This document shows, piece by piece, positions 38,230 to 52,394 of a DNA stretch of 64,000 bases. The notes under the pieces are model-generated. The model saw only the letters and a program-made list of their open reading frames with translations. It was not told where the DNA came from and made no database searches. Position 1 is the stretch's first letter; every line of letters starts with the position of its first letter. The position numbers and the translations under genes are program-made. Source of the stretch: Neoroseomonas eburnea. GTDB lineage: Bacteria; Pseudomonadota; Alphaproteobacteria; Acetobacterales; Acetobacteraceae. Where the stretch lies: the NCBI RefSeq assembly GCF_018129005.1, contig NZ_JAAEDL010000002.1:77897-141896 (forward strand). Reading direction: 5' to 3'.

Positions 38230-39189
38230 ATGATCGGCATCATGCCCCGCGGCGACCTCTTTCCCGATATCGCGCCTTACGAAACCGGCTTGCTGCCGCT
38301 GTCGGGCGGTCACGTGATGTACTGGGAGCAGGTCGGCAACCCCCGCGGCCAGCCGGTGCTGTTCCTGCATGGGGGCCCCGGCGCCGGAGCAGGCGCGGTC
38401 CACCGGCGCTTCTTCGACCCGGGCCACTGGCGCGTGGTGATCTTCGACCAGCGCGGCGCCGGCCGGTCCCGCCCGCTTGGGGAATTGCGGGACAACACGA
38501 CGCCGCACCTCGTTTCCGACATCGAGACGCTGCGCCGCTTCCTCGGCATCGAGCGCTGGCTGTTGTTCGGCGGTTCCTGGGGATCGACGCTGGCACTGGC
38601 CTACGCGCAGGAACATCCGGAACGCGTCACGGGCTGCGTGCTGCGCGGCGTCTTCCTCGGCCGCCGGACGGAAGTGGAGTGGTTCCTCACGGGCCTGCGG
38701 CGGGTCTTCCCGGATGCCTGGGCATCCTTCGCCGAGCATGTGCCGGAACAGGAGCGCGACGACCTGCTCGGAGCCTACCTCAAGCGGCTCTGCCACCCCG
38801 ACCCGGCGGTGCACCTGCCCGCGGCACGTGCCTGGAGCCAGTACGAGGGATCCTGCTCGACTTTGCTGCCCTCGCCCGAGACGGTGGCGTCCTTCGCGCA
38901 GGACCGCTCGGCGCTGGGGTTGGCGAGGATCGAGGCGCACTACTTCGTGCACGACCTGTTCCTGCCGCCGGAGGGGCTGCTTGGGCGCATCGGGCGGATC
39001 GCCAGGATCCCGGCGGAGATCGTGCAGGGTCGCTACGACATGGTCTGCCCGGCGGAGACGGCCTTCGATCTCGCCGCGGCCTGGCCGGGGGCGCGGTTGA
39101 CGGTGGTGCCGGATGCCGGCCATTCGGCGCTGGAACCCGGCGTGCGGACGGCGCTGGTCTCGGCGGTGGACCGGTTCCGGCGGCGCTGA
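38230..39189 (+). CDS. pip: Proline iminopeptidase (prolyl aminopeptidase, S33 alpha/beta hydrolase)
   Basis: YWEQVGNPRGQPVLFLHGGPGAG...WRVVIFDQRGAGRS...LLFGGSWGSTLALAYA (the GxSxG nucleophile elbow) and a C-terminal D/H pair. Confidence 0.9.
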   Translation: MIGIMPRGDLFPDIAPYETGLLPLSGGHVMYWEQVGNPRGQPVLFLHGGPGAGAGAVHRRFFDPGHWRVVIFDQRGAGRSRPLGELRDNTTPHLVSDIETLRRFLGIERWLLFGGSWGSTLALAYAQEHPERVTGCVLRGVFLGRRTEVEWFLTGLRRVFPDAWASFAEHVPEQERDDLLGAYLKRLCHPDPAVHLPAARAWSQYEGSCSTLLPSPETVASFAQDRSALGLARIEAHYFVHDLFLPPEGLLGRIGRIARIPAEIVQGRYDMVCPAETAFDLAAAWPGARLTVVPDAGHSALEPGVRTALVSAVDRFRRR

Positions 39190-39225
39190 GCACGTGATAT
39201 AAGCCGCGCCGGTGGGTCCCCGTAG

Positions 39226-39302
39226 CTCAGCAGGATAGAGCACAGGATTCCTAATCCTGGGGCCGTGAGTTCGAATCTCGCCGGGGACGCCACTTCCAGT
39301 TC
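39226..39302 (+). tRNA. tRNA-Arg (anticodon CCT)
   Basis: Acceptor stem is gtccccg/cggggac, discriminator g, encoded CCA. The anticodon loop is ttCCTaa in stem cagga/tcctg. TTCGAAT T-loop. Total 77 nt. Confidence 0.85.
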
Positions 39303-39588
39303 GTCAAACTATGCTCTTGGCCCGGTGGCCTCGCCGTGAGGCGCAGGTTTCCCGTGATTCTTGTACGTGGGCTGGCCACCGGGCACAGGGACCGACGCCC
39401 CGAAATCCTCTCTCTCGGGCGGCCTCTCTCCGAACCTGGTGACTTGGCCGATTATCGAGCCACGCTGAAAGCCGCGGAAAACATCGACTTTCTGCGGCAG
39501 AAGTGCGGCGCAGTTGGCAGAGCGCATGGGGGAGCGAAGCAGTCTCCCACCGAATCGTTGATGGGTAGCCAACTGGTCAGCACCACCA

Positions 39589-42756
<3,168 letters not shown>

Positions 42757-42835
42757 CCTCTCTGTGACCGCCTCGGCGCCCGAAACCGGTCGCGAGATGC
42801 ACGTCTCGGGACGCAAGGCGCCTGCCGCGAGAAGG

Positions 42836-43447
42836 TCAGAGGCATGCCTCAATCCCCTCGCGGAAGACACGGAAGCTGACGGTGCGATTGGCGGAGGCAG
42901 TCATGTTCTCCGCGATTCGACGCGCGGCTTCGATCTTCTGGTAGGTGCCGGGATAGTAGCCGTGCTTCTTCAGAAACCTGTGCAGGGCCTCCCACGAGCC
43001 GCCATTCTCTGGGTTCCGGAACGGCGACGCCGCAAGCTTGATCTGCGGCAGCCTCGGAAATGTGACGCGCAGGGCGTCAGGATCCCCAAGAAACCAGGAT
43101 TCCAACTCTTCGATCGCTATGCGCGCCACAACCGTGAAGGGCGAGCCCCCGCGCGCGGCCGACTTCGTGATCAGTCCGGCCGCTTGCGCCGCCCGTTCCA
43201 TCTGGGCCTTCAGTGCCGTGCAGTCGTCCTGGTCGCGGTCCACCAGCACGAGGACGCGGAGATCCTCGCCGCCTTTCAGCCTGTCCGCATATCCGCGAAG
43301 CCGTGCCTCCAGCTTCTTGAGGAGGGCGTGCTTGCTGCCGAGATTGATGATCTTGATCCGAGCGCGCCCCTGCACGATCCGCGGCAGCAGCACCTGCAAC
43401 GCAGCTTCGGCCGAGGGCTCCTCCACCAGGACCTCGATCCGGCGCAT
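42836..43447 (-). CDS. DUF4276-like protein with TOPRIM-type acidic motifs (E...DxD), putative nuclease partner of the adjacent ATPase
   Basis: [24 protein letters not shown] (conserved Glu) and [12 protein letters not shown] (DxD) follow the TOPRIM pattern. About 204 aa. The start overlaps the ATPase stop (gTGAtg). Confidence 0.65.
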
Positions 43448-44646
43448 CACGCGGTCTCCGAGGCCAGCGGGTCGCCGACCTCGAAATGCCCTTCCATCCA
43501 GATCTCGCCCAGGCTCGCCCCCTGGTTGAGGAAGGCCATAGCGCCCGGCATGTCGGCCACCCGCTTGGCGGCAGTGTAGCCTTGGGCGTTACGGTAAAGG
43601 ACCCGGACTTCCTTCGGATCCATCGAATTGATGAAGAAAGGCGAGTGTGTGGTGATGATGAGCTGCGTGCGGGCCGAGGCGCTGCGGCATTCCTCGGCGA
43701 GTTCGGGCAGCAGGCGCGGGTGCAGGAAGTTCTCCGGCTCCTCGATGCCGATCAGGCGCGGCGGATTGGGATCGTAGAGCAGCGTGAGGTAGGCGAGCAG
43801 CTTCAGCGTCCCGTCGGATACGAAACGCGACAGCACGGGCGTCGAGAAGGGCGCGTCCTTGAAAAGCAGCAGCAGGCGGCTGTCCGCCAGCACCTCGGCC
43901 TCGACCTTCTCGATGCGCGGGACACGGCGACGCAAGGTCTCGAAGATCTGATCCAGCCGTTCGGGATGCTGATCGCGGAGATACTGGATGACGTTGGGCA
44001 GGTTGCTGCCGTCGGGCGAGAGCCTCTCCTCAGCGCCGGCTTCTGGGCTGCCGCGCGCGGCCTCGGCCGACAGGTAGGAGAGGTGCCAGCTGGTGATGAA
44101 GTTCCGCAGCGCGATGACGCGCGGGTTCTCGGCGAGCGTGCCGAGCGTGGAGACTGCAAGAACGTCGGGCCCGGCCAGTGAGCGTTCAACCCGGGTGTCC
44201 TTGTCCTCTGGTTGCTCGCCGGTGATGACGCGGCCCTGGCCGTTCTCGTAGTCCAGGAAACGGAAGGGCTTGCCGCCTTTGCCGCGCGTCCAGCTCAGGT
44301 ACTCGCGCGCGACGACCGGGCCTCGGCGCGTCTCGTCCAGCTCAAGGTGATACGTGATCAGCGGGGTCTTCGGGGCTTCGCGGTACTTGATCTCGATGAG
44401 GATCCGGCCTTCGCTGTCGCGGCTGCGCAATTCCCGGAAGCGGCCGCGCCGGTCCCATGGCTTGCGGATGCCTTCCTGGAAGGCTTCGGCTAGGAAGGCG
44501 AACACGTCGAACACTGTGGACTTGCCGCTGCCATTCGGGCCGAGCAGGACGGTGACGTCCGTCAGATCTTTCAGCGTCAGGTCGCGCAGCGCGCGGTAGT
44601 TCTGCACCTGTAGGCTGAGGATCCGCGGCGGGGGGGGAAGCGTCAT
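43447..44646 (-). CDS. ABC-type/AAA_21-family ATPase (OLD/AriA/PtuA-like) embedded in the Type I R-M operon
   Basis: Walker A is [11 protein letters not shown]. The ABC signature is like [14 protein letters not shown]. Walker B is [14 protein letters not shown]. The H-loop is IITTHSP. ATG overlaps the hsdS stop (ATGA). Confidence 0.8.
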
Positions 44647-45915
44647 GCGGCGGTTTCCATCAGGCGCTCGGCGTCGTGCACGCGGAGTTCGCCCGACATC
44701 AGACGAGGGAGGAGGAGGTCGCGGGTAGCGGCGAGGGTGCGGGACTCAAGGGAGTTGGCGAGGCTGCGCTGAAAAAGCGGCGCGATCAGCTCGTCGGCGG
44801 CCTTCATGATCTCACGAGATCCAATCACCGTCATCGCTTCCGAGAGATGGTGCCGCTGAATGTGCCCCATCGTTGTCGCCTTGGACGCCGCAATGGCCTG
44901 AAATCGAGGCAGGTGGTGGTCCACCCAAAGGTAGTGCAGCCACTTCGGCCACTCCTTGGACGTGACCTTGAAGAGGTGCTGGTTCAGCGCGCCGCGACCA
45001 CCCGTCCAGACGCGCTGGAGCAGGCTGCCTGACCAGGAGAACAGGATGTCCCCATCCTCGACGACATACTGCGGCGGGATGGCGCGCGAGGCACGGTCGC
45101 TGCCGCTCGGGCTGCCGGCCCGGAGCTCAGCGATCTTGATCACCGGCAGGTCGTCGTCGCCGGTGCCGGGGTACTTCTGAAGCGCGAGGCCGTTCAGGAA
45201 GTCCGCGATCTGGTCGAGCGGCACTTCGCGCCACCCCTCCGGCTTCCCCTCCGCGTCGAGGCGATCGGGGAACAGGGCCCAGAGGTCGGGGGCGAGGTAG
45301 GGCGGGCTGCCTTCCATCTTGGCGCGGGTGGGGCCGAAGGCGACGAACCAGTCCTGGAAGATCGCCCGCGCCATCGCCTCCAGCGTCTCGTTCATCCGCC
45401 GGTTCAACTCGATCTTGTCGTCGAGCGCGCCGAGGATCGAGGAAATCGCCTGCCGTTCGTGACGCGGCGGGAGCACGATCGGCAGCCGCGAGAGGTCTCT
45501 GAGGTTCAGGGTCGCCTGAACCGTTGTGTTGAGGCGGCTTTGAATCATCGACGCGGCGGCGGACGACCGAAGGCCAAGTTGGACCCAATACGGCCCAACC
45601 TCCGGCTTGACCGGCAATACGGCGATGGCGCGAGCCACATTCCAGCCGGCCATATCGGGTGGAACAATGGCGGTCTCGCCCACAGTCCCCACGATGGTAA
45701 TGAGCAACTCGCCGCCACGCAGCCGTGTGCGGCCGTACGCGCGCTCGATATCTGCCGAGACGCGCAGGGGCGACCGGACTTCAATGCGGCCGTTTCGCAC
45801 ATCGGAAACTCTGACGATCGGCACGCCATCAGGAACCGGTGATCCCGGCTGCACGATGCCGTATGAGATGCCGCGTTGTGGGTCCACCAACTCGCTGAGC
45901 GGAACGGATGGCCAG

Positions 45916-45926
<11 letters not shown>
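44643..45926 (-). CDS. hsdS: Type I restriction-modification specificity subunit (HsdS)
   Basis: Two target-recognition domains are separated by a central conserved helix, with a C-terminal conserved helix ([12 protein letters not shown]). The start was set at [14 protein letters not shown] (45926), overlapping the hsdM stop by 11 nt. Confidence 0.85.
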
Positions 45927-47760
<1,834 letters not shown>

Positions 47761-47903
47761 GGCTTCCCGGGATCATATTGGCGAAGCAGCCTGCCGATTC
47801 GGGGCTGCGGCGCGATATGATCAACCATGGGTGGAACGGATTCAATCGCGCGATGGATTATGCCTGGTCCGCGCGGGAATCTTGTCCGTGTGCCTGCCGT
47901 GCG

Positions 47904-48297
47904 TCACCCGAGAGCGCGACGTTGCTCCGCCCACGCGTCGTCGATCAACATCCCGGGCCGGATGCTGTTTGCGTCCACGGTCTGCCGGCCATCGAGGATG
48001 CCCTCCAACAGATCCGGCGCCAACAGGGTTAAGCGCAGCAGGCGCGCGACATAGGACCGATCTGCTCCCTCGGCGACGGCCAAGTCGCGCATGGAGGCGT
48101 ACCGCCCCTCCTCCAGCATCCGCCGCCACCGGAACGCCCGCGCCAGCGCCTTGACCAGGGCTGGGTCGCCGCTAGTGGCTTCCACACCCAACCCGTCCTG
48201 GCCAGCCCGCACCGGCGACCCATCCGGCCCAACGATCTGCTTCCGCCCTCCGCGGCGGCGAATCGTCATCGGCACCACTACCGTCACGCTGCTCATG
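47904..48297 (-). CDS. Small HTH (ParB/KorB-like helix-turn-helix) protein translationally coupled to the serine recombinase
   Basis: ATG overlaps the recombinase stop (ATGA). MSSVTVVVPMTIRRRGG...YASMRDLAVAEGADRSYVARLLRLTLLAPDLLEGI resembles the ParB-type HTH. Confidence 0.5.
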
Positions 48298-49624
48298 CTG
48301 CGATCGCCTCCCGCGGCTTCGCCGCCATGTCCCGCGCCAGCCCAGCGAGCCCCTCCAGGTTCAGCCGAATCTCTGCGCCCTTCTCGGTGACCGTCACACG
48401 CTCGACGAGCAGCCGCACGATCCGCTCCTGCTCGCCGGGGAACAGTTCGTCCCAAAGGGGATCGAGCCGCCCAAGCCCGTCGCGCACCTCCGCCTCGGTC
48501 AGGTCCGGCGCCTCCTCCCGCGCAGCCCGCCAGGTGCCGACGACGACCTCCGGCTGGCGCAGGAGCGCCCGGATCTGCGCCAGCACCAGCCCCTCGATCT
48601 CCCCGGCCGGCAGGCGCCGGAGCGGTGCGTCGTCTGCCCCGCCCTGCAGCACCGCCTGGCTGACGTAATAGCGGTAGAGCCGCCCCTTCTTTCGCGTATG
48701 GGTCGGCGACATCGCCCGCCCGTCCGGCCCGAACAGCAGGCCGCGCAGCAGCGCCGGCGCGGTGGCGCGGTTCTTCGCCGCGCGGGCGCGCGGGCTCTCG
48801 ACCATGATGGCGTGCACCCGGTCCCACAGCTCCCGCGGGATGATGGCGGCGTGCTCGCCGGGATAGGATGTCCCCTTGTGCACCGCCTCGCCGAGAAAGG
48901 TCCGGTTCACCAGCAGCTTGTAGACGGCCCCCTTGTCGAAAGGCCGGCCGGTCTTGGTGACGAGGCCCTCGGCGCGGAGGACGGGCAGCAGCCGCGTGGC
49001 GGATCCGATCTCGGCGAAGTTCTCGAACACGCGGCGCACCGTCGCAGCGCCCGCCTCGTCCACCACGAGCTTGCGGTTCTCGACCCGGTAGCCGAGCGGC
49101 ACCGGACCGCCCATCCACATGCCCCGCGCGCGCGAGGCGGCGATCTTGTCGCGAACGCGCTCGCCGATGATCTCCCTCTCATACTGGGCAAAGCTCAGCA
49201 GGATGTTCAGCGTGAGCCGGCCCATGCTGGTGGTGGTATTAAAGCTCTGAGTGACAGCAACAAACGTGACCTCGTTGTCGTCGAAGGTCTGCACCAGCTT
49301 GGCGAAGTCCATCAGCGAGCGGGACAGACGATCAATTTTATAACAGACGATGACGTCGATCAGGCCGGCCTCAATATCGGCCAGCAATCGCTTCAATGCG
49401 GGGCGATCGAGCGTGCCGCCCGACACGCCGCCATCATCGTAGCGATCGTGCACCAGCACCCAGCCCTCGGAGCGCTGCGACGTGATGAAGGCCTCGCACG
49501 CGGCCCGCTGCGCGTCGAGCGAGTTGAACTCCTTCTCCAGCCCCTCGTCTGTGGATTTGCGGGTGTAGACGGCGCAGCGGAGCTTGCGGATTTTCGCCGG
49601 CAGGACGGGTTCGCGGCGGGTCAT
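48293..49624 (-). CDS. Large serine recombinase (resolvase/invertase N-terminal catalytic domain plus recombinase and zinc-ribbon/coiled-coil C-terminal domains)
   Basis: The N-terminus is LRCAVYTRKSTDEGLEKEFNSLDAQR (catalytic Ser in the RKST context), then DVIVCYKIDRLSRSLMD. At about 443 aa with the C-terminal extension it is a large serine recombinase. Confidence 0.85.
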   Translation of the reverse strand: MTRREPVLPAKIRKLRCAVYTRKSTDEGLEKEFNSLDAQRAACEAFITSQRSEGWVLVHDRYDDGGVSGGTLDRPALKRLLADIEAGLIDVIVCYKIDRLSRSLMDFAKLVQTFDDNEVTFVAVTQSFNTTTSMGRLTLNILLSFAQYEREIIGERVRDKIAASRARGMWMGGPVPLGYRVENRKLVVDEAGAATVRRVFENFAEIGSATRLLPVLRAEGLVTKTGRPFDKGAVYKLLVNRTFLGEAVHKGTSYPGEHAAIIPRELWDRVHAIMVESPRARAAKNRATAPALLRGLLFGPDGRAMSPTHTRKKGRLYRYYVSQAVLQGGADDAPLRRLPAGEIEGLVLAQIRALLRQPEVVVGTWRAAREEAPDLTEAEVRDGLGRLDPLWDELFPGEQERIVRLLVERVTVTEKGAEIRLNLEGLAGLARDMAAKPREAIAA

Positions 49625-50109
49625 GCGCCGGGCTTCCGCAGCCCGAAGAACACCCAGCCATTCCAGCGCGTGCCGGTGATGGCGCGGGCGATGGCGGAAA
49701 GCGACTGGTAGGGGCGACCCTGGTATTCGTAGCCGTCGCGCGTGACGGTGACGACATGCTCGACGCCCTGGTACTCGCGGATCAGCCGCGTGCCAGCGAT
49801 CGGCCGCTGCTCGTGGCGGATGCGGCGCAGGGTGATATTCCGGCCGTCGAACTGCTCACCCAGTGCCTCGAGGCGTTCCAGCGTCTCCCTCTTCAGGCCG
49901 CCATAGGCCAGCTCCTGGATGCGATATGCGAGGCGGCTCTCCAGGAAGCGCCGATTATAGGGCGGCGGCTCGGTGCCGAAGAGGCTGCGCCATTCGGCCT
50001 TCAACTCGCCGATGGGCATGCCGGGCAGCGCGGCGAGGCGCGCCGGCACGTCCGGCTTCGGGAGGGCGGTGATCGTCGTCGTCATGGTGTTCGGCTTCGC
50101 GCGGGTCAT
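49621..50109 (-). CDS. DUF2924 family protein (conserved partner of large serine recombinases)
   Basis: Its stop overlaps the recombinase ATG (ATGA). LPGMPIGELKAEWRSLFGTEPPPYNRRFLESRLAYRIQELAYGGL fits the DUF2924 pattern. Confidence 0.6.
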   Translation of the reverse strand: MTRAKPNTMTTTITALPKPDVPARLAALPGMPIGELKAEWRSLFGTEPPPYNRRFLESRLAYRIQELAYGGLKRETLERLEALGEQFDGRNITLRRIRHEQRPIAGTRLIREYQGVEHVVTVTRDGYEYQGRPYQSLSAIARAITGTRWNGWVFFGLRKPGA

Positions 50110-50312
50110 GCGTCTCCCTTTCTCCTGGGGTTCGCACGAAGGCGCTGGCCGGGGACGGAGTGTAGGCGAACCACGCGCTCGCCGCCGGCCGCGGGCGCGG
50201 CTTCCTCGGGAGCGCGACTCCTCAGCCGCAGCAGCCCGCGGGCGAGAAGGTCGCAGACCTCGCGAAGGTGAGGCGGGAGGTGGGCGTTGATGGGACGGTC
50301 GTCACGCTGCAT
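50106..50312 (-). CDS. Small hypothetical protein (68 aa) translationally coupled to the DUF2924 gene
   Basis: ATGA overlap with the DUF2924 start. Arg-rich (PHLREVCDLLARGLLRLRSR). It is a possible small DNA-binding/excisionase-like protein, or it could be spurious. Confidence 0.3.
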   Translation of the reverse strand: MQRDDRPINAHLPPHLREVCDLLARGLLRLRSRAPEEAAPAAGGERVVRLHSVPGQRLRANPRRKGDA

Positions 50313-50397: not shown

Positions 50398-51129
50398 TCA
50401 GGCGACCGAGACATCCGGCGGCAGGATCACCACCCGCGCCCCGATCGGGACGCGCTGGTACAGGTCGATGATGTCCTGGTTGATCAGCCGCACGCAGCCT
50501 GCCGAGGCCATGGTGCCGATGGTCCAGGGCTCCACCGTGCCGTGCAGGCGGTAATAGGTGTCGACGCCGTCCTGGTAGAGGTAGAGCGCCCGCGCCCCGA
50601 GCGGATTGCGGCCGCCACCGGGCACGCCGTCGCGGAAGGCGCCATAGCGCTGCGGATCGCGCCGGACCATGTCGGGGGTCGGGCGCCAGTTCGGCCAGGC
50701 GGCCTTGCGCTCGACAAAGGCTTCGCCCGTGAGGTTGAAGGCCTCGTCCCGGCCAACGGCGATGCCGTAGCGCATGGCACGGCGGCCCTCGAGGGCCAGA
50801 TAGGCGTAGCGGGCGGCCGTATCGACGACGATGGTCCCGGGTTCGTCGTCGCGCGGATAGGCCACCTCGCGGCGGAGGAACCGCGGATCGATGCGCCGGA
50901 GGTTCACCGCTGGGATCCAAAAGCGATCCGTGGTGATGGCCGCGTAGATCCGGCGATAGTCCGGCTCGGCCGCCGGCACGGCCGCGGGCGAAGGTTCGGG
51001 CGCGACAGGCGGGGCGGCATCCGCCTGCGGCGACACCACGCTCGGCAGGGATCGCGGCGCTTCCGACGACGCGCACGCCGTGAGCAGGCCAGGCAGGCCG
51101 GCGACAAGGCTCCTTCGGCTAACGCGCAT
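50398..51129 (-). CDS. L,D-transpeptidase (YkuD/ErfK family) lipoprotein
   Basis: The lipobox is GLLTAC. The catalytic region is GTVEPWTIGTMASAGCVRLINQDIIDLY (the conserved Cys in the SxGChR-like motif). Confidence 0.8.
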   Translation of the reverse strand: MRVSRRSLVAGLPGLLTACASSEAPRSLPSVVSPQADAAPPVAPEPSPAAVPAAEPDYRRIYAAITTDRFWIPAVNLRRIDPRFLRREVAYPRDDEPGTIVVDTAARYAYLALEGRRAMRYGIAVGRDEAFNLTGEAFVERKAAWPNWRPTPDMVRRDPQRYGAFRDGVPGGGRNPLGARALYLYQDGVDTYYRLHGTVEPWTIGTMASAGCVRLINQDIIDLYQRVPIGARVVILPPDVSVA

Positions 51130-51220
51130 CGATCGTCCGGAATCCCCTGAGCAGCAGCAAAACTGCTTGCGCCAAGTCAACGATATGGACGGCGGCTTTG
51201 TCCACCGCCTCGGCCGCTGC

Positions 51221-51997
51221 CTACGCGCCCACCTGCCGTCCGAGCCAGATCACCCGCCCGATGACATGGACGTCGTCAGCGGTCAGGCCGCGCTGCGGCT
51301 GATAGGCGGGGTTGTCCGACAGCACGCTGAGCCGCGGCGGCCGACCCAGTTCCACCTGCACCCGCTTCACCTGCAGGCCGTTGCCCGTGCGGATGACGTA
51401 GATCCCGTCCTTGTCCCCAGGCTGGTTCTGCCGGAAGTCGACCAGAACCGTGTCGCCGGTGCGTAGCGTTGGCTCCATCGAATCCCCGTCTACCGTGATC
51501 ACCGCCAGCTGGTCGAGCGGGGCGGTGGTCACTGTGCGGACCCACTCCTCCCGGAAGGCAATGCGATAGACGACGGCCTCCCGGTCGATCTCCTGGCCAG
51601 GACCGGCTGAGGCGCGGGCGTCGTAGACCGGCAGCAGCGCCCAGTTGTCGCCGCCCATGCTGATCACCTCGGCCGCGGCCGGGCCGGTGTAGGAGGTGGG
51701 CGGCCGAGGCGGCGCGGCCTTGCGTCGCACCCGCTGGCCGAGCACCGCAGCGGCTTCCTCCGGGGTGTTGATGGCGATGCCGGCGTCGCCGGCCTCCTTG
51801 CCGAACAGCAGCATCTGCCAGGTGATGCCGAGGGGCACGGCGAGCTCGCGTGCGGCACGCGCGGTGAGTGGGCGGCGGCCGCTCTCATAGGCGCGATAGG
51901 TCGCCTCCGGGACGCCAGCGAGGCGGGCCAATTCGGCCCCTGAATCAATGCCCTTGGCTTCGCGAAAGCGGCGGAGGCGGTCTGCGGTGGATTCCAT
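51221..51997 (-). CDS. CI/LexA-like repressor (XRE-family HTH plus S24 peptidase domain)
   Basis: The HTH is AELARLAGVPEATYRAYESGRR. The S24 signatures are VDGDSMEPTL (the Ser nucleophile) and ...QVKRVQ (the Lys). It is divergently oriented from a Cro-like gene. Confidence 0.8.
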   Translation of the reverse strand: MESTADRLRRFREAKGIDSGAELARLAGVPEATYRAYESGRRPLTARAARELAVPLGITWQMLLFGKEAGDAGIAINTPEEAAAVLGQRVRRKAAPPRPPTSYTGPAAAEVISMGGDNWALLPVYDARASAGPGQEIDREAVVYRIAFREEWVRTVTTAPLDQLAVITVDGDSMEPTLRTGDTVLVDFRQNQPGDKDGIYVIRTGNGLQVKRVQVELGRPPRLSVLSDNPAYQPQRGLTADDVHVIGRVIWLGRQVGA

Positions 51998-52097
51998 GGC
52001 GCTGCAATATGTAGCGCTTTCATCGCGATTGTGTAGCAGGTTTCTGCATATACAAACAGTCTTGTTTGCGTGCCGCGACGGAGCGTATCTGTCCCGC
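51998..52097. promoter_or_regulatory. Divergent CI/Cro-type promoter-operator region
   Basis: A 100-bp AT-richer spacer carries TGTAGC half-sites (52010 tgtagcgc and 52032 tgtagcag) and a 16-bp palindrome CAAACAgtctTGTTTG (52053-52068). Confidence 0.4.
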
Positions 52098-52394
52098 ATG
52101 CCCGACCGCATCGCCCTCCGCAAACGGCCCGCCGAACCGGCACGCCCGGCGCTGTCGCCCGCGCTCCCGCCGCCCAAGAGCTTTGCCGACGTGATCGCCC
52201 TGTGGCCCAGCGCCGCTGAGCTCGCCGCCCTGCTGGATGTCGAGGCGGTCACTGTCCGCGCCTGGCGTCGCCGCGGGATCCCCGCCCGGTACTGGGCCGC
52301 GGTCGCCGAGGCGGCGCGCTTCAGCGGCCGACCCGTCGATGAGCGGCTGCTCGCCGGCTTGGGCTCCATCCGCAAGGGCCGCACCCATGGGTAA
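52098..52394 (+). CDS. Cro/early-regulator-like small DNA-binding protein
   Basis: 98 aa, divergent from the CI-like repressor. The C-terminal region AVTVRAWRRRGIPARYWAAVAEAA is HTH-like. Its stop overlaps the next gene's start. Confidence 0.45.
   Translation: MPDRIALRKRPAEPARPALSPALPPPKSFADVIALWPSAAELAALLDVEAVTVRAWRRRGIPARYWAAVAEAARFSGRPVDERLLAGLGSIRKGRTHG

Follow-up and report, generated by a model that had tools for sequence, protein, structure and literature searches.

A HEC-01-type ATPase and DUF4276 gene pair, a candidate anti-phage defence module, within a Type I restriction-modification operon of Neoroseomonas eburnea

HEC-01 and the N. eburnea gene pair

HEC-01 (Hma-embedded candidate 01; PADLOC-DB v2) is a published candidate defence system that consists of an ABC ATPase together with a TOPRIM protein whose metal site is OLD-like (Payne et al., bioRxiv 10.1101/2024.01.29.577857). 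It was discovered in Hma systems through 'guilt-by-embedding', and embedded genes are frequent also in BREX, DISARM and Type I restriction-modification (R-M) systems (bioRxiv 10.1101/2024.01.29.577857). A gene pair of this kind is present in Neoroseomonas eburnea, within a 64,000 nt stretch of contig NZ_JAAEDL010000002.1 (assembly GCF_018129005.1, positions 77,897 to 141,896), which is referred to here as the window. The pair lies on the minus strand between hsdS and hsdR of a Type I R-M operon and encodes a 399 aa ABC-type (SMC/Rad50/OLD-like) ATPase of the HEC-01A type (43447..44646) and a DUF4276 protein of the HEC-01B type, a predicted nuclease with a TOPRIM fold, of 203 or 204 aa (42836..43450).

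Both proteins match the HEC-01 models of PADLOC over their full length. The ATPase matches HEC-01A PDLC04182 with an E-value of 5.1e-156 and 517.7 bits (residues 7–392 against 2–404 of the 406 model positions), and the DUF4276 protein matches HEC-01B PDLC04202 with an E-value of 2e-68 and 228.5 bits (residues 4–203 against 2–200 of 204). The E-values of the key hidden Markov model matches range from 1e-28 to 1e-156, which is far beyond chance. The two genes are adjacent on the same strand, with overlapping stop and start codons, and like the published examples they are embedded on the same strand in a methylation-based defence system. The window pair is a well-formed new example of HEC-01; it is not a new system or category, because the fold assignment and the embedding behaviour of HEC-01 have already been published. 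It differs in its setting, since HEC-01 was defined from Hma loci and the host system in the window is a Type I R-M system.

On balance, the pair is probably a self-contained defence module of the HEC-01 type, an OLD architecture split over two polypeptides, carried as cargo in the hsdS–hsdR interval of an acquired Type I cassette. An earlier note on this DNA had described the same two open reading frames (ORFs), of 399 and 204 aa, and had interpreted them as a split OLD-like candidate anti-phage module. Each refuting condition set out in that note was checked, and every outcome favoured the interpretation. The filing of the pair by PADLOC as a candidate defence system agrees with this, and the description and interpretation are supported in essence, with the exceptions of the coupling to hsdR, one ATPase motif and the system PD-T4-4, which are dealt with below.

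The PADLOC model PDLC04144, named HEC-01B, matches the ATPase (6e-117) and PDLC04143, named HEC-01A, matches the DUF4276 protein (5e-26). These matches are crosswise, therefore the A and B labels are swapped in some of the PADLOC HEC-01 models, and this could confuse automated annotation.

The two proteins and related systems

The ATPase has the motifs of an ABC-type enzyme in their usual order: Walker A GPNGSGKST at residues 36–44, a signature-like motif VSDGT at 276–280 within VSDGTLKLL at 276–284, Walker B IGIEEPE at 299–305 within LIGIEEPE at 298–305, and an H-loop TTHSP at 332–336, together with an ABC head fold in the predicted model. The Walker and H-loop motifs are as previously described, but the signature, which had been given as LSDGTLKLL, reads VSDGTLKLL. 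Pfam matches are to AAA_21 (3.7e-34) and AAA_15 (2.4e-19), with weaker matches to SMC_N, AAA_23 and AAA_29. A sequence search of the Protein Data Bank (PDB) found no close solved relative; the best match, to PtuA (1.6e-09), is restricted to the P-loop and Walker B regions. In quality the AlphaFold model is moderate, with a predicted local distance difference test score (pLDDT) of 71.2 and a predicted template modelling score (pTM) of 0.76. Motifs and model place the protein among the ABC ATPases of the SMC/Rad50/OLD-like clade, rather than among transporter subunits. A transporter ATPase was considered and rejected, there being no permease neighbour and the fold being nearer to SMC, Rad50 and OLD than to the nucleotide-binding domains of transporters. 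The earlier note had allowed that close homologues might be annotated with a characterised housekeeping function, but the homologues are labelled only 'AAA family ATPase', 'DUF4276 family protein' or 'hypothetical protein'.

The smaller protein matches Pfam DUF4276 from end to end (1.7e-28), and this is its sole Pfam family at E≤0.01, with no match to RloB (PF13707), DUF4435 or TOPRIM_OLD. Of the Pfam families that had been suggested for the pair, AAA_21, AAA_15 and DUF4276 were therefore found, while TOPRIM_OLD and DUF4435 were not at this threshold. The acidic motifs previously proposed to follow the TOPRIM E...DxD layout are present as [11 protein letters not shown] at residues 8–18 and LVDRDQDD at residues 69–76. 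In the predicted model, which is confident (pLDDT 84.8, pTM 0.82), there is a four-stranded alpha/beta core with E9/E10 following strand 1 and D70-x-D72 following strand 3. This is the arrangement of the Toprim superfamily, an alpha/beta core with a glutamate after beta1 and DxD after beta3, to which DUF4276 and RloB have been assigned with their E and DxD residues (PMC12065111). The AAA15/21 defence-ATPase tree in the PARIS paper likewise annotates DUF4276 among the effector domains (PMC11464382). A search of the PDB with the DUF4276 profile gave no match. In the numbering of the 203 aa form, E9, E10, D70 and D72 are invariant among DUF4276 homologues, D74, D75 and E113 are conserved in ≥90% of the sequences, and residues 114–119 of the EELESWF block (113–119) are invariant. 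As judged from sequence and model, the DUF4276 protein has a TOPRIM fold of the OLD type and is a predicted nuclease. All of the catalytic-type residues of the two window proteins are intact, since they fall in invariant columns of the homologue alignments (A1 and A4), in which Walker A, Walker B and the H-loop of the ATPase are invariant together with E9, E10, D70 and D72.

In the OLD nucleases, which include P2 Old (class 1), GajA (class 2) and retron Eco8 (class 3), the two modules are fused in OLD and GajA, whereas in the window they are separate genes. GajA works with the helicase GajB, and the window locus has no helicase. Sequence similarity to OLD and GajA is restricted to the P-loop and Walker B/H-loop regions. 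The PARIS proteins AriA and AriB, which are class 4 OLD-like, resemble the window pair in having the ATPase and TOPRIM modules split over two polypeptides. However, AriB is a DUF4435 protein of 35 kDa with a solved chain of 305 residues, as against the 203 aa DUF4276 partner here, and AriA is of about 464 aa with another insert, as against an ATPase of 399 aa. PARIS is often phage- or satellite-borne, whereas the window family has no match in 50,697 phage records. An Ocr trigger and a tRNA target are established for PARIS. Membership of PARIS was rejected, since the small protein has neither a DUF4435 nor a TOPRIM_OLD match in Pfam at E≤0.01, the PADLOC AriA models match only in part (best stretch 190–340) and there is no AriB model among the small protein's 15 PADLOC matches.

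PD-T4-4, which the earlier note had tentatively given as being of the same type, also combines an ABC/OLD-like ATPase with a small nuclease gene. The PD-T4-4_B nuclease is of the PD-(D/E)xK type (PMC12137116, PMC10952713, bioRxiv 10.1101/2025.07.10.664194), in contrast to the TOPRIM-fold partner in the window, and on this ground that link does not hold and the identity was rejected. No PD-T4-4 model is among the best 25 of the 144 PADLOC matches of the ATPase, and the 15 that the DUF4276 protein gave include none either.

MADS, the methylation-associated defence system of Pseudomonas aeruginosa, has an ATPase, Mad3, and a DUF4276 homologue, Mad4 (PMC12065111), in an operon that also encodes a methyltransferase and an S-like subunit, and both mad3 and mad4 are needed for MADS defence (bioRxiv 10.1101/2023.03.30.534895). 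One possible reading is that the window pair are integral subunits of the restriction machinery, like Mad3 and Mad4, with a role in methylation-dependent discrimination of self from non-self or in cleavage together with HsdMS. Deletion of mad3 or mad4 lowers MADS defence, and mad5, which is S-like, can be deleted only together with mad2 or mad3 (bioRxiv 10.1101/2023.03.30.534895). The window ATPase matches PADLOC mad3 (2.5e-25) and NCBIfam MAD3 (5.6e-39), and the pair is translationally coupled to hsdS. Set against this, the NCBIfam MAD3 match scores 134.5 bits where the cut-off is 420, the mad4 match is marginal (E 0.0022), and standalone pairs are common in the genomes surveyed. A complete HsdR, in which nuclease, motor and C-terminal domains are all found, is already present in the window operon, and an integral role of this kind is considered very unlikely. 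Membership of MADS itself was rejected on the scores, since in addition to MAD3 the matches of hsdM to MAD2 (45.2 against a cut-off of 720) and of hsdS to MAD5 (28.3 against 400) fall far short. MADS has eight genes, including mad6–8, while the window operon is a canonical hsdM/S/R and Mad3 and Mad4 are only distant relatives of its pair; the neighbouring genes of the window that were scanned gave no matches of the mad6–8 type.

The position between hsd genes is shared with PrrC and with RloA/RloB. PrrC differs in being a single ABC-like ATPase fused to an anticodon nuclease domain. RloB, a protein seen in Type I R-M systems, is also a member of the Toprim superfamily (PMC12065111), but membership of RloA/RloB was rejected on the lack of a Pfam RloB match.

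Distribution, embedding and possible function

Searches with the DUF4276 protein returned over 1,100 homologues with E≤1e-3, and those with the ATPase at least 8,000 candidates; a look-up of the exact DUF4276 sequence of the window gave no record. From a scan of species-representative genomes, 80 loci were surveyed, numbered here with the prefix L. Homologues were found in Acetobacteraceae, Betaproteobacteria, Gammaproteobacteria, Desulfovibrionales, Acidobacteriota, Cyanobacteria, Planctomycetota, Spirochaetota, Actinomycetota and Methanomicrobiales, the nearest named relatives being from Roseomonas and Acetobacteraceae. The pair is rare on plasmids, with 8 records in the plasmid collection. 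In 79 of the 80 loci the DUF4276 gene has an ATPase homologue immediately upstream in the same orientation, and the exception is cut off by the end of its contig. The two proteins have also evolved together, their identities to the window pair being correlated at r=0.98, against about 0.72 for the correlation with HsdR (21 embedded loci).

Ratios of nonsynonymous to synonymous substitution (dN/dS) were calculated against L082, the closest relative (ATPase 0.05, DUF4276 0.26), and against L083 (ATPase 0.07, DUF4276 0.17). These ratios indicate that both genes are under purifying selection, with the ATPase markedly more constrained than the DUF4276 protein. The window HsdS (44643–45926) is only 41% identical to the HsdS of L082 (941–2155), while the adjoining ATPase is 97% identical; as a sequence comparison, the low HsdS identity fits a pattern typical of target-recognition-domain swapping.

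About 25–27 of the 80 loci, or a third, are in or beside the same Type I family. Homologues of the window hsd genes are present in 27 loci, and in most of these the order is hsdM-hsdS-ATPase-DUF4276-hsdR. The whole five-gene cassette is common to the window and Roseomonas sp. GC11 (L001) at about 76% nucleotide identity. The two share this block only and have unrelated flanks, which shows that the cassette moves as a unit. The pair also moves on its own, apart from the R-M genes, since in L020, L023 and L031 the ATPase is 75–80% identical to that of the window and HsdR only 56–58%. In other loci the pair is between the Type III genes mod and res, or beside HmaC, PglX, DrmMI, Septu or PD-T4-6.

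The hsdS–hsdR interval is a hot-spot for defence cargo. The types of cargo in relatives include RhuM-Fic, Peptidase_M78/IrrE-like with DUF4411, Abi_C, GmrSD-like/DUF262, Schlafen AlbA_2-HTH, Fic-HTH, and DUF4433 with a macro-domain (DarTG-like). On a Meiothermus plasmid the interval holds a DUF262 protein and a DUF4433/macro-domain (DarTG-like) pair beside the ATPase/DUF4276 pair. In related Type I operons with the pair, cargo of these types was seen in this interval at L003:5792-6802, L012:8664-9707, L014:8606-12095, L023:8917-10347 and L028:1963-6517, and in the hsdM–hsdR interval at L081:802-5703.

The pair's position in the window is also that expected of a PrrC-like guard, which would be latent under the Type I enzyme or monitor it, and would fire when a phage anti-restriction protein (a DNA mimic of the Ocr or ArdA type, or a Stp-like peptide) disables the enzyme, thus providing a dedicated second line for the operon. 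The prrC gene has this same position in the EcoprrI locus. The overlap coupling of the pair to hsdM and hsdS, and the embedding of a third of the related loci in one Type I family, are consistent with such a role, and PARIS, the closest solved split ATPase and TOPRIM system, is named 'phage anti-restriction induced system' (PMC11464382). However, the pair stands alone in many genomes, the Type III, Hma and BREX/DISARM settings rule out a need for one specific R-M partner, and in L020, L023 and L031 the identity of the ATPase does not follow that of HsdR. A guard tied to this operon is unlikely.

It could also be supposed that the pair is a selfish addiction cassette, similar to a toxin-antitoxin (TA) system, that stabilises mobile R-M islands, or that its role is outside defence, for example in DNA repair as with RecF (an ABC ATPase) and RecR (a TOPRIM protein). 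Pfam describes AAA_21 as 'putative AbiEii toxin, Type IV TA system', the cassette is mobile, as seen in the five-gene block shared with Roseomonas sp. GC11, and one heterologous test found no defence (bioRxiv 10.1101/2024.01.29.577857). The distribution is patchy across many phyla at 55–78% identity, though, as is usual for accessory genes that move horizontally and not for core repair genes. The embedding among defence genes is recurrent, one phage assay of HEC-01 is reported as positive in a preprint (bioRxiv 10.1101/2024.09.26.614923), and TA behaviour and defence by abortive infection are not mutually exclusive. A selfish or non-defence role seems improbable in the light of these points. 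The guard, the integral restriction subunit and the selfish or non-defence cassette are all rated below a self-contained defence module, mainly because the pair is so often without an R-M partner, or has different partners.

Several points weigh against a self-contained defence module with an OLD architecture. In the first test of HEC-01, in E. coli against the BASEL and classic coliphages, there was no protection (bioRxiv 10.1101/2024.01.29.577857). A later study of cold-seep microbes reports that a HEC-01 representative gave E. coli B protection from at least one of the phages T4, T5 and T7, but this result comes from a single preprint and another family member, with no fold reduction found for HEC-01 (bioRxiv 10.1101/2024.09.26.614923). 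The phage-tested representatives thus give conflicting results, and neither is the window pair; a 2026 survey still counts HEC-01 as an unvalidated candidate. The literature found reports no nuclease activity, complex, trigger or substrate for any DUF4276 protein. The ATPase model is only moderately confident, with pLDDT <50 in the insert residues 187–218 and 264–277, and it is nearer to SMC/Rad50 heads than to OLD, the label 'OLD-like' being used mainly because of the partner domain and the Pfam AAA_15/21 matches. Many loci are also without defence neighbours, such as L083, where a pair close to that of the window (ATPase 86% and DUF4276 70% identical) is alone among metabolic genes, and nine loci of the Nostoc group.

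In these Nostoc-group loci (L068–L071, L074, L076 and L078–L080) the pair, with an ATPase about 50% identical to that of the window, is at a conserved position with no adjacent defence genes. It is flanked by phosphoglycerate kinase (PGK) and universal stress protein (Usp) genes and, in six of the loci, by a Nudix hydrolase.

If the pair is a self-contained HEC-01-type module, its action can be proposed by analogy with the better-known systems, and this applies to complex formation, trigger, substrate and defence phenotype alike. The pair would be expressed with hsdM and hsdS through the overlapping start and stop codons. The ATPase would be the sensor of infection and the regulator, probably as an ATP-dependent dimer or oligomer, and would keep the TOPRIM protein inactive. 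A phage-derived cue might then shift the state of the ATPase, and the metal-dependent TOPRIM nuclease would be released or activated. The nuclease could cut DNA, as does GajA, or tRNA, as does AriB, so that phage replication stops and the cell probably dies. The title of a 2026 preprint describes P2 Old as tRNA-targeting. Acting in this way, the module would be a back-up layer of immunity behind the R-M system.

A bolder version, which is doubtful at present, is that the DUF4276 TOPRIM protein is an abortive-infection nuclease that targets tRNA or other RNA, and that the ATPase specifically detects when methylation-based immunity is inhibited, as by anti-restriction DNA mimics. This would explain why the pair has repeatedly been inserted in operons of the Type I, Type III, Hma and BREX/DISARM kinds, and HEC-01 would in that case serve R-M-like systems as a portable 'guard' cassette with a mechanism unlike those of PARIS and PrrC. 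The window locus is a clean, intact and apparently co-expressed example of a widespread ATPase and TOPRIM family that is mechanistically unsolved and experimentally disputed, and is a candidate for testing whether OLD-like modules embedded in R-M systems serve as back-up immunity.

The host operon and its island

The host operon is an intact Type I R-M system, with hsdM, hsdS and hsdR all on the minus strand. The methyltransferase subunit gene hsdM (45916..47760, a 614 aa ORF) matches Pfam N6_Mtase (4.1e-105) and HsdM_N (2.1e-22) and PADLOC MTase_I (8e-202). The specificity subunit gene hsdS (44643..45926) matches Pfam Methylase_S (1.8e-13) and PADLOC Specificity_I (5.8e-87). The restriction/translocase subunit gene hsdR (39589..42756) encodes about 1055 aa from the ATG at 42756, with the Pfam domains HSDR_N, SWI2_SNF2, T1R_D3-like and T1RH-like_C and a match to TIGR00348 (2.2e-182). 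The N6_Mtase, Specificity_I and TIGR00348 matches bear out the previous identification of the flanking genes as hsdS and hsdR of a Type I operon.

Four of the genes, hsdM, hsdS, the ATPase gene and the DUF4276 gene, are coupled by overlaps, and hsdR follows after a spacer of 79 nt on the minus strand (42757..42835), between the DUF4276 stop codon and the probable hsdR start. The mechanical hsdS ORF extends to 46043, but the start is likely to be the ATG at 45926; within the long ORF, the PADLOC model matches begin at residue 40, and alignments with homologues at residues 20–74. From this start there is an 11 nt overlap with the end of hsdM. The hsdS stop and the ATPase start share ATGA, and the ATPase stop TGA overlaps both GTG 43450 and ATG 43447 of the DUF4276 ORF (GTGA or TGATG). 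Of these two possible starts, ATG 43447 (203 aa) is probably used rather than GTG 43450 (204 aa), because a length of 203 aa is that of most homologues and the ATG is the start called in the closest relative.

Coupling by overlapping codons had been claimed on both sides of the pair. It holds for the hsdS side and for the ATPase and DUF4276 genes, but not for the hsdR side. Although the mechanical hsdR ORF starts at GTG 42870, similarity to HsdR in more than 20 homologous loci begins at residues 36–42 of the long ORF, mostly at 39, which is the ATG at 42756, and in L082 there is a 79 nt gap between DUF4276 and hsdR that matches the position in the window. The DUF4276 gene and hsdR thus share a strand, about 79 nt apart, without translational coupling. 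The RNA structure of the spacer is not significant (fold z-score -1.68), and promoter and terminator scans of 39–50.5 kb gave nothing above shuffled expectation, with no consensus in the spacer either.

HsdM is extended at its N-terminus by about 110 aa (residues 1–113, window 47425–47760), with HsdM_N starting only at residue 114. The nucleotide and tblastn similarity of Roseomonas sp. GC11 to the window hsdM starts near residue 107. Either an additional small domain or a wrongly placed start may account for the extension.

The R-M cassette lies in a region (39000–50200) that is probably a horizontally acquired genomic island. This is suggested by the lower GC content, which drops from about 0.72 to about 0.66 over 39.0–47.7 kb, against 0.71–0.74 in the flanks, together with a tRNA gene on one side and recombinase and DUF2924 genes on the other. 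The tRNA-Arg(CCT) gene identified by ARAGORN (39216..39292, plus strand) abuts the hsdR end of the cassette and is a possible boundary of the island; an att-like direct repeat of its 3' end was searched for in the window and not found. On the hsdM side, on the minus strand, are a large serine recombinase (48293..49624; Pfam Resolvase 2.7e-39, Recombinase and Zn_ribbon_recom) and a DUF2924 protein (49621..50109; Pfam DUF2924 3.2e-53), which are likely to be the mobility genes of the island. Just past a YkuD L,D-transpeptidase gene (50398–51180) there is a 387 aa ORF on the minus strand (51221–52384) with HTH_3 and Peptidase_S24 domains, similar to repressors of the LexA/CI type. The ORF is probably over-extended, since these domains begin only at residue 134, and it may mark a prophage or other mobile element beside the island.

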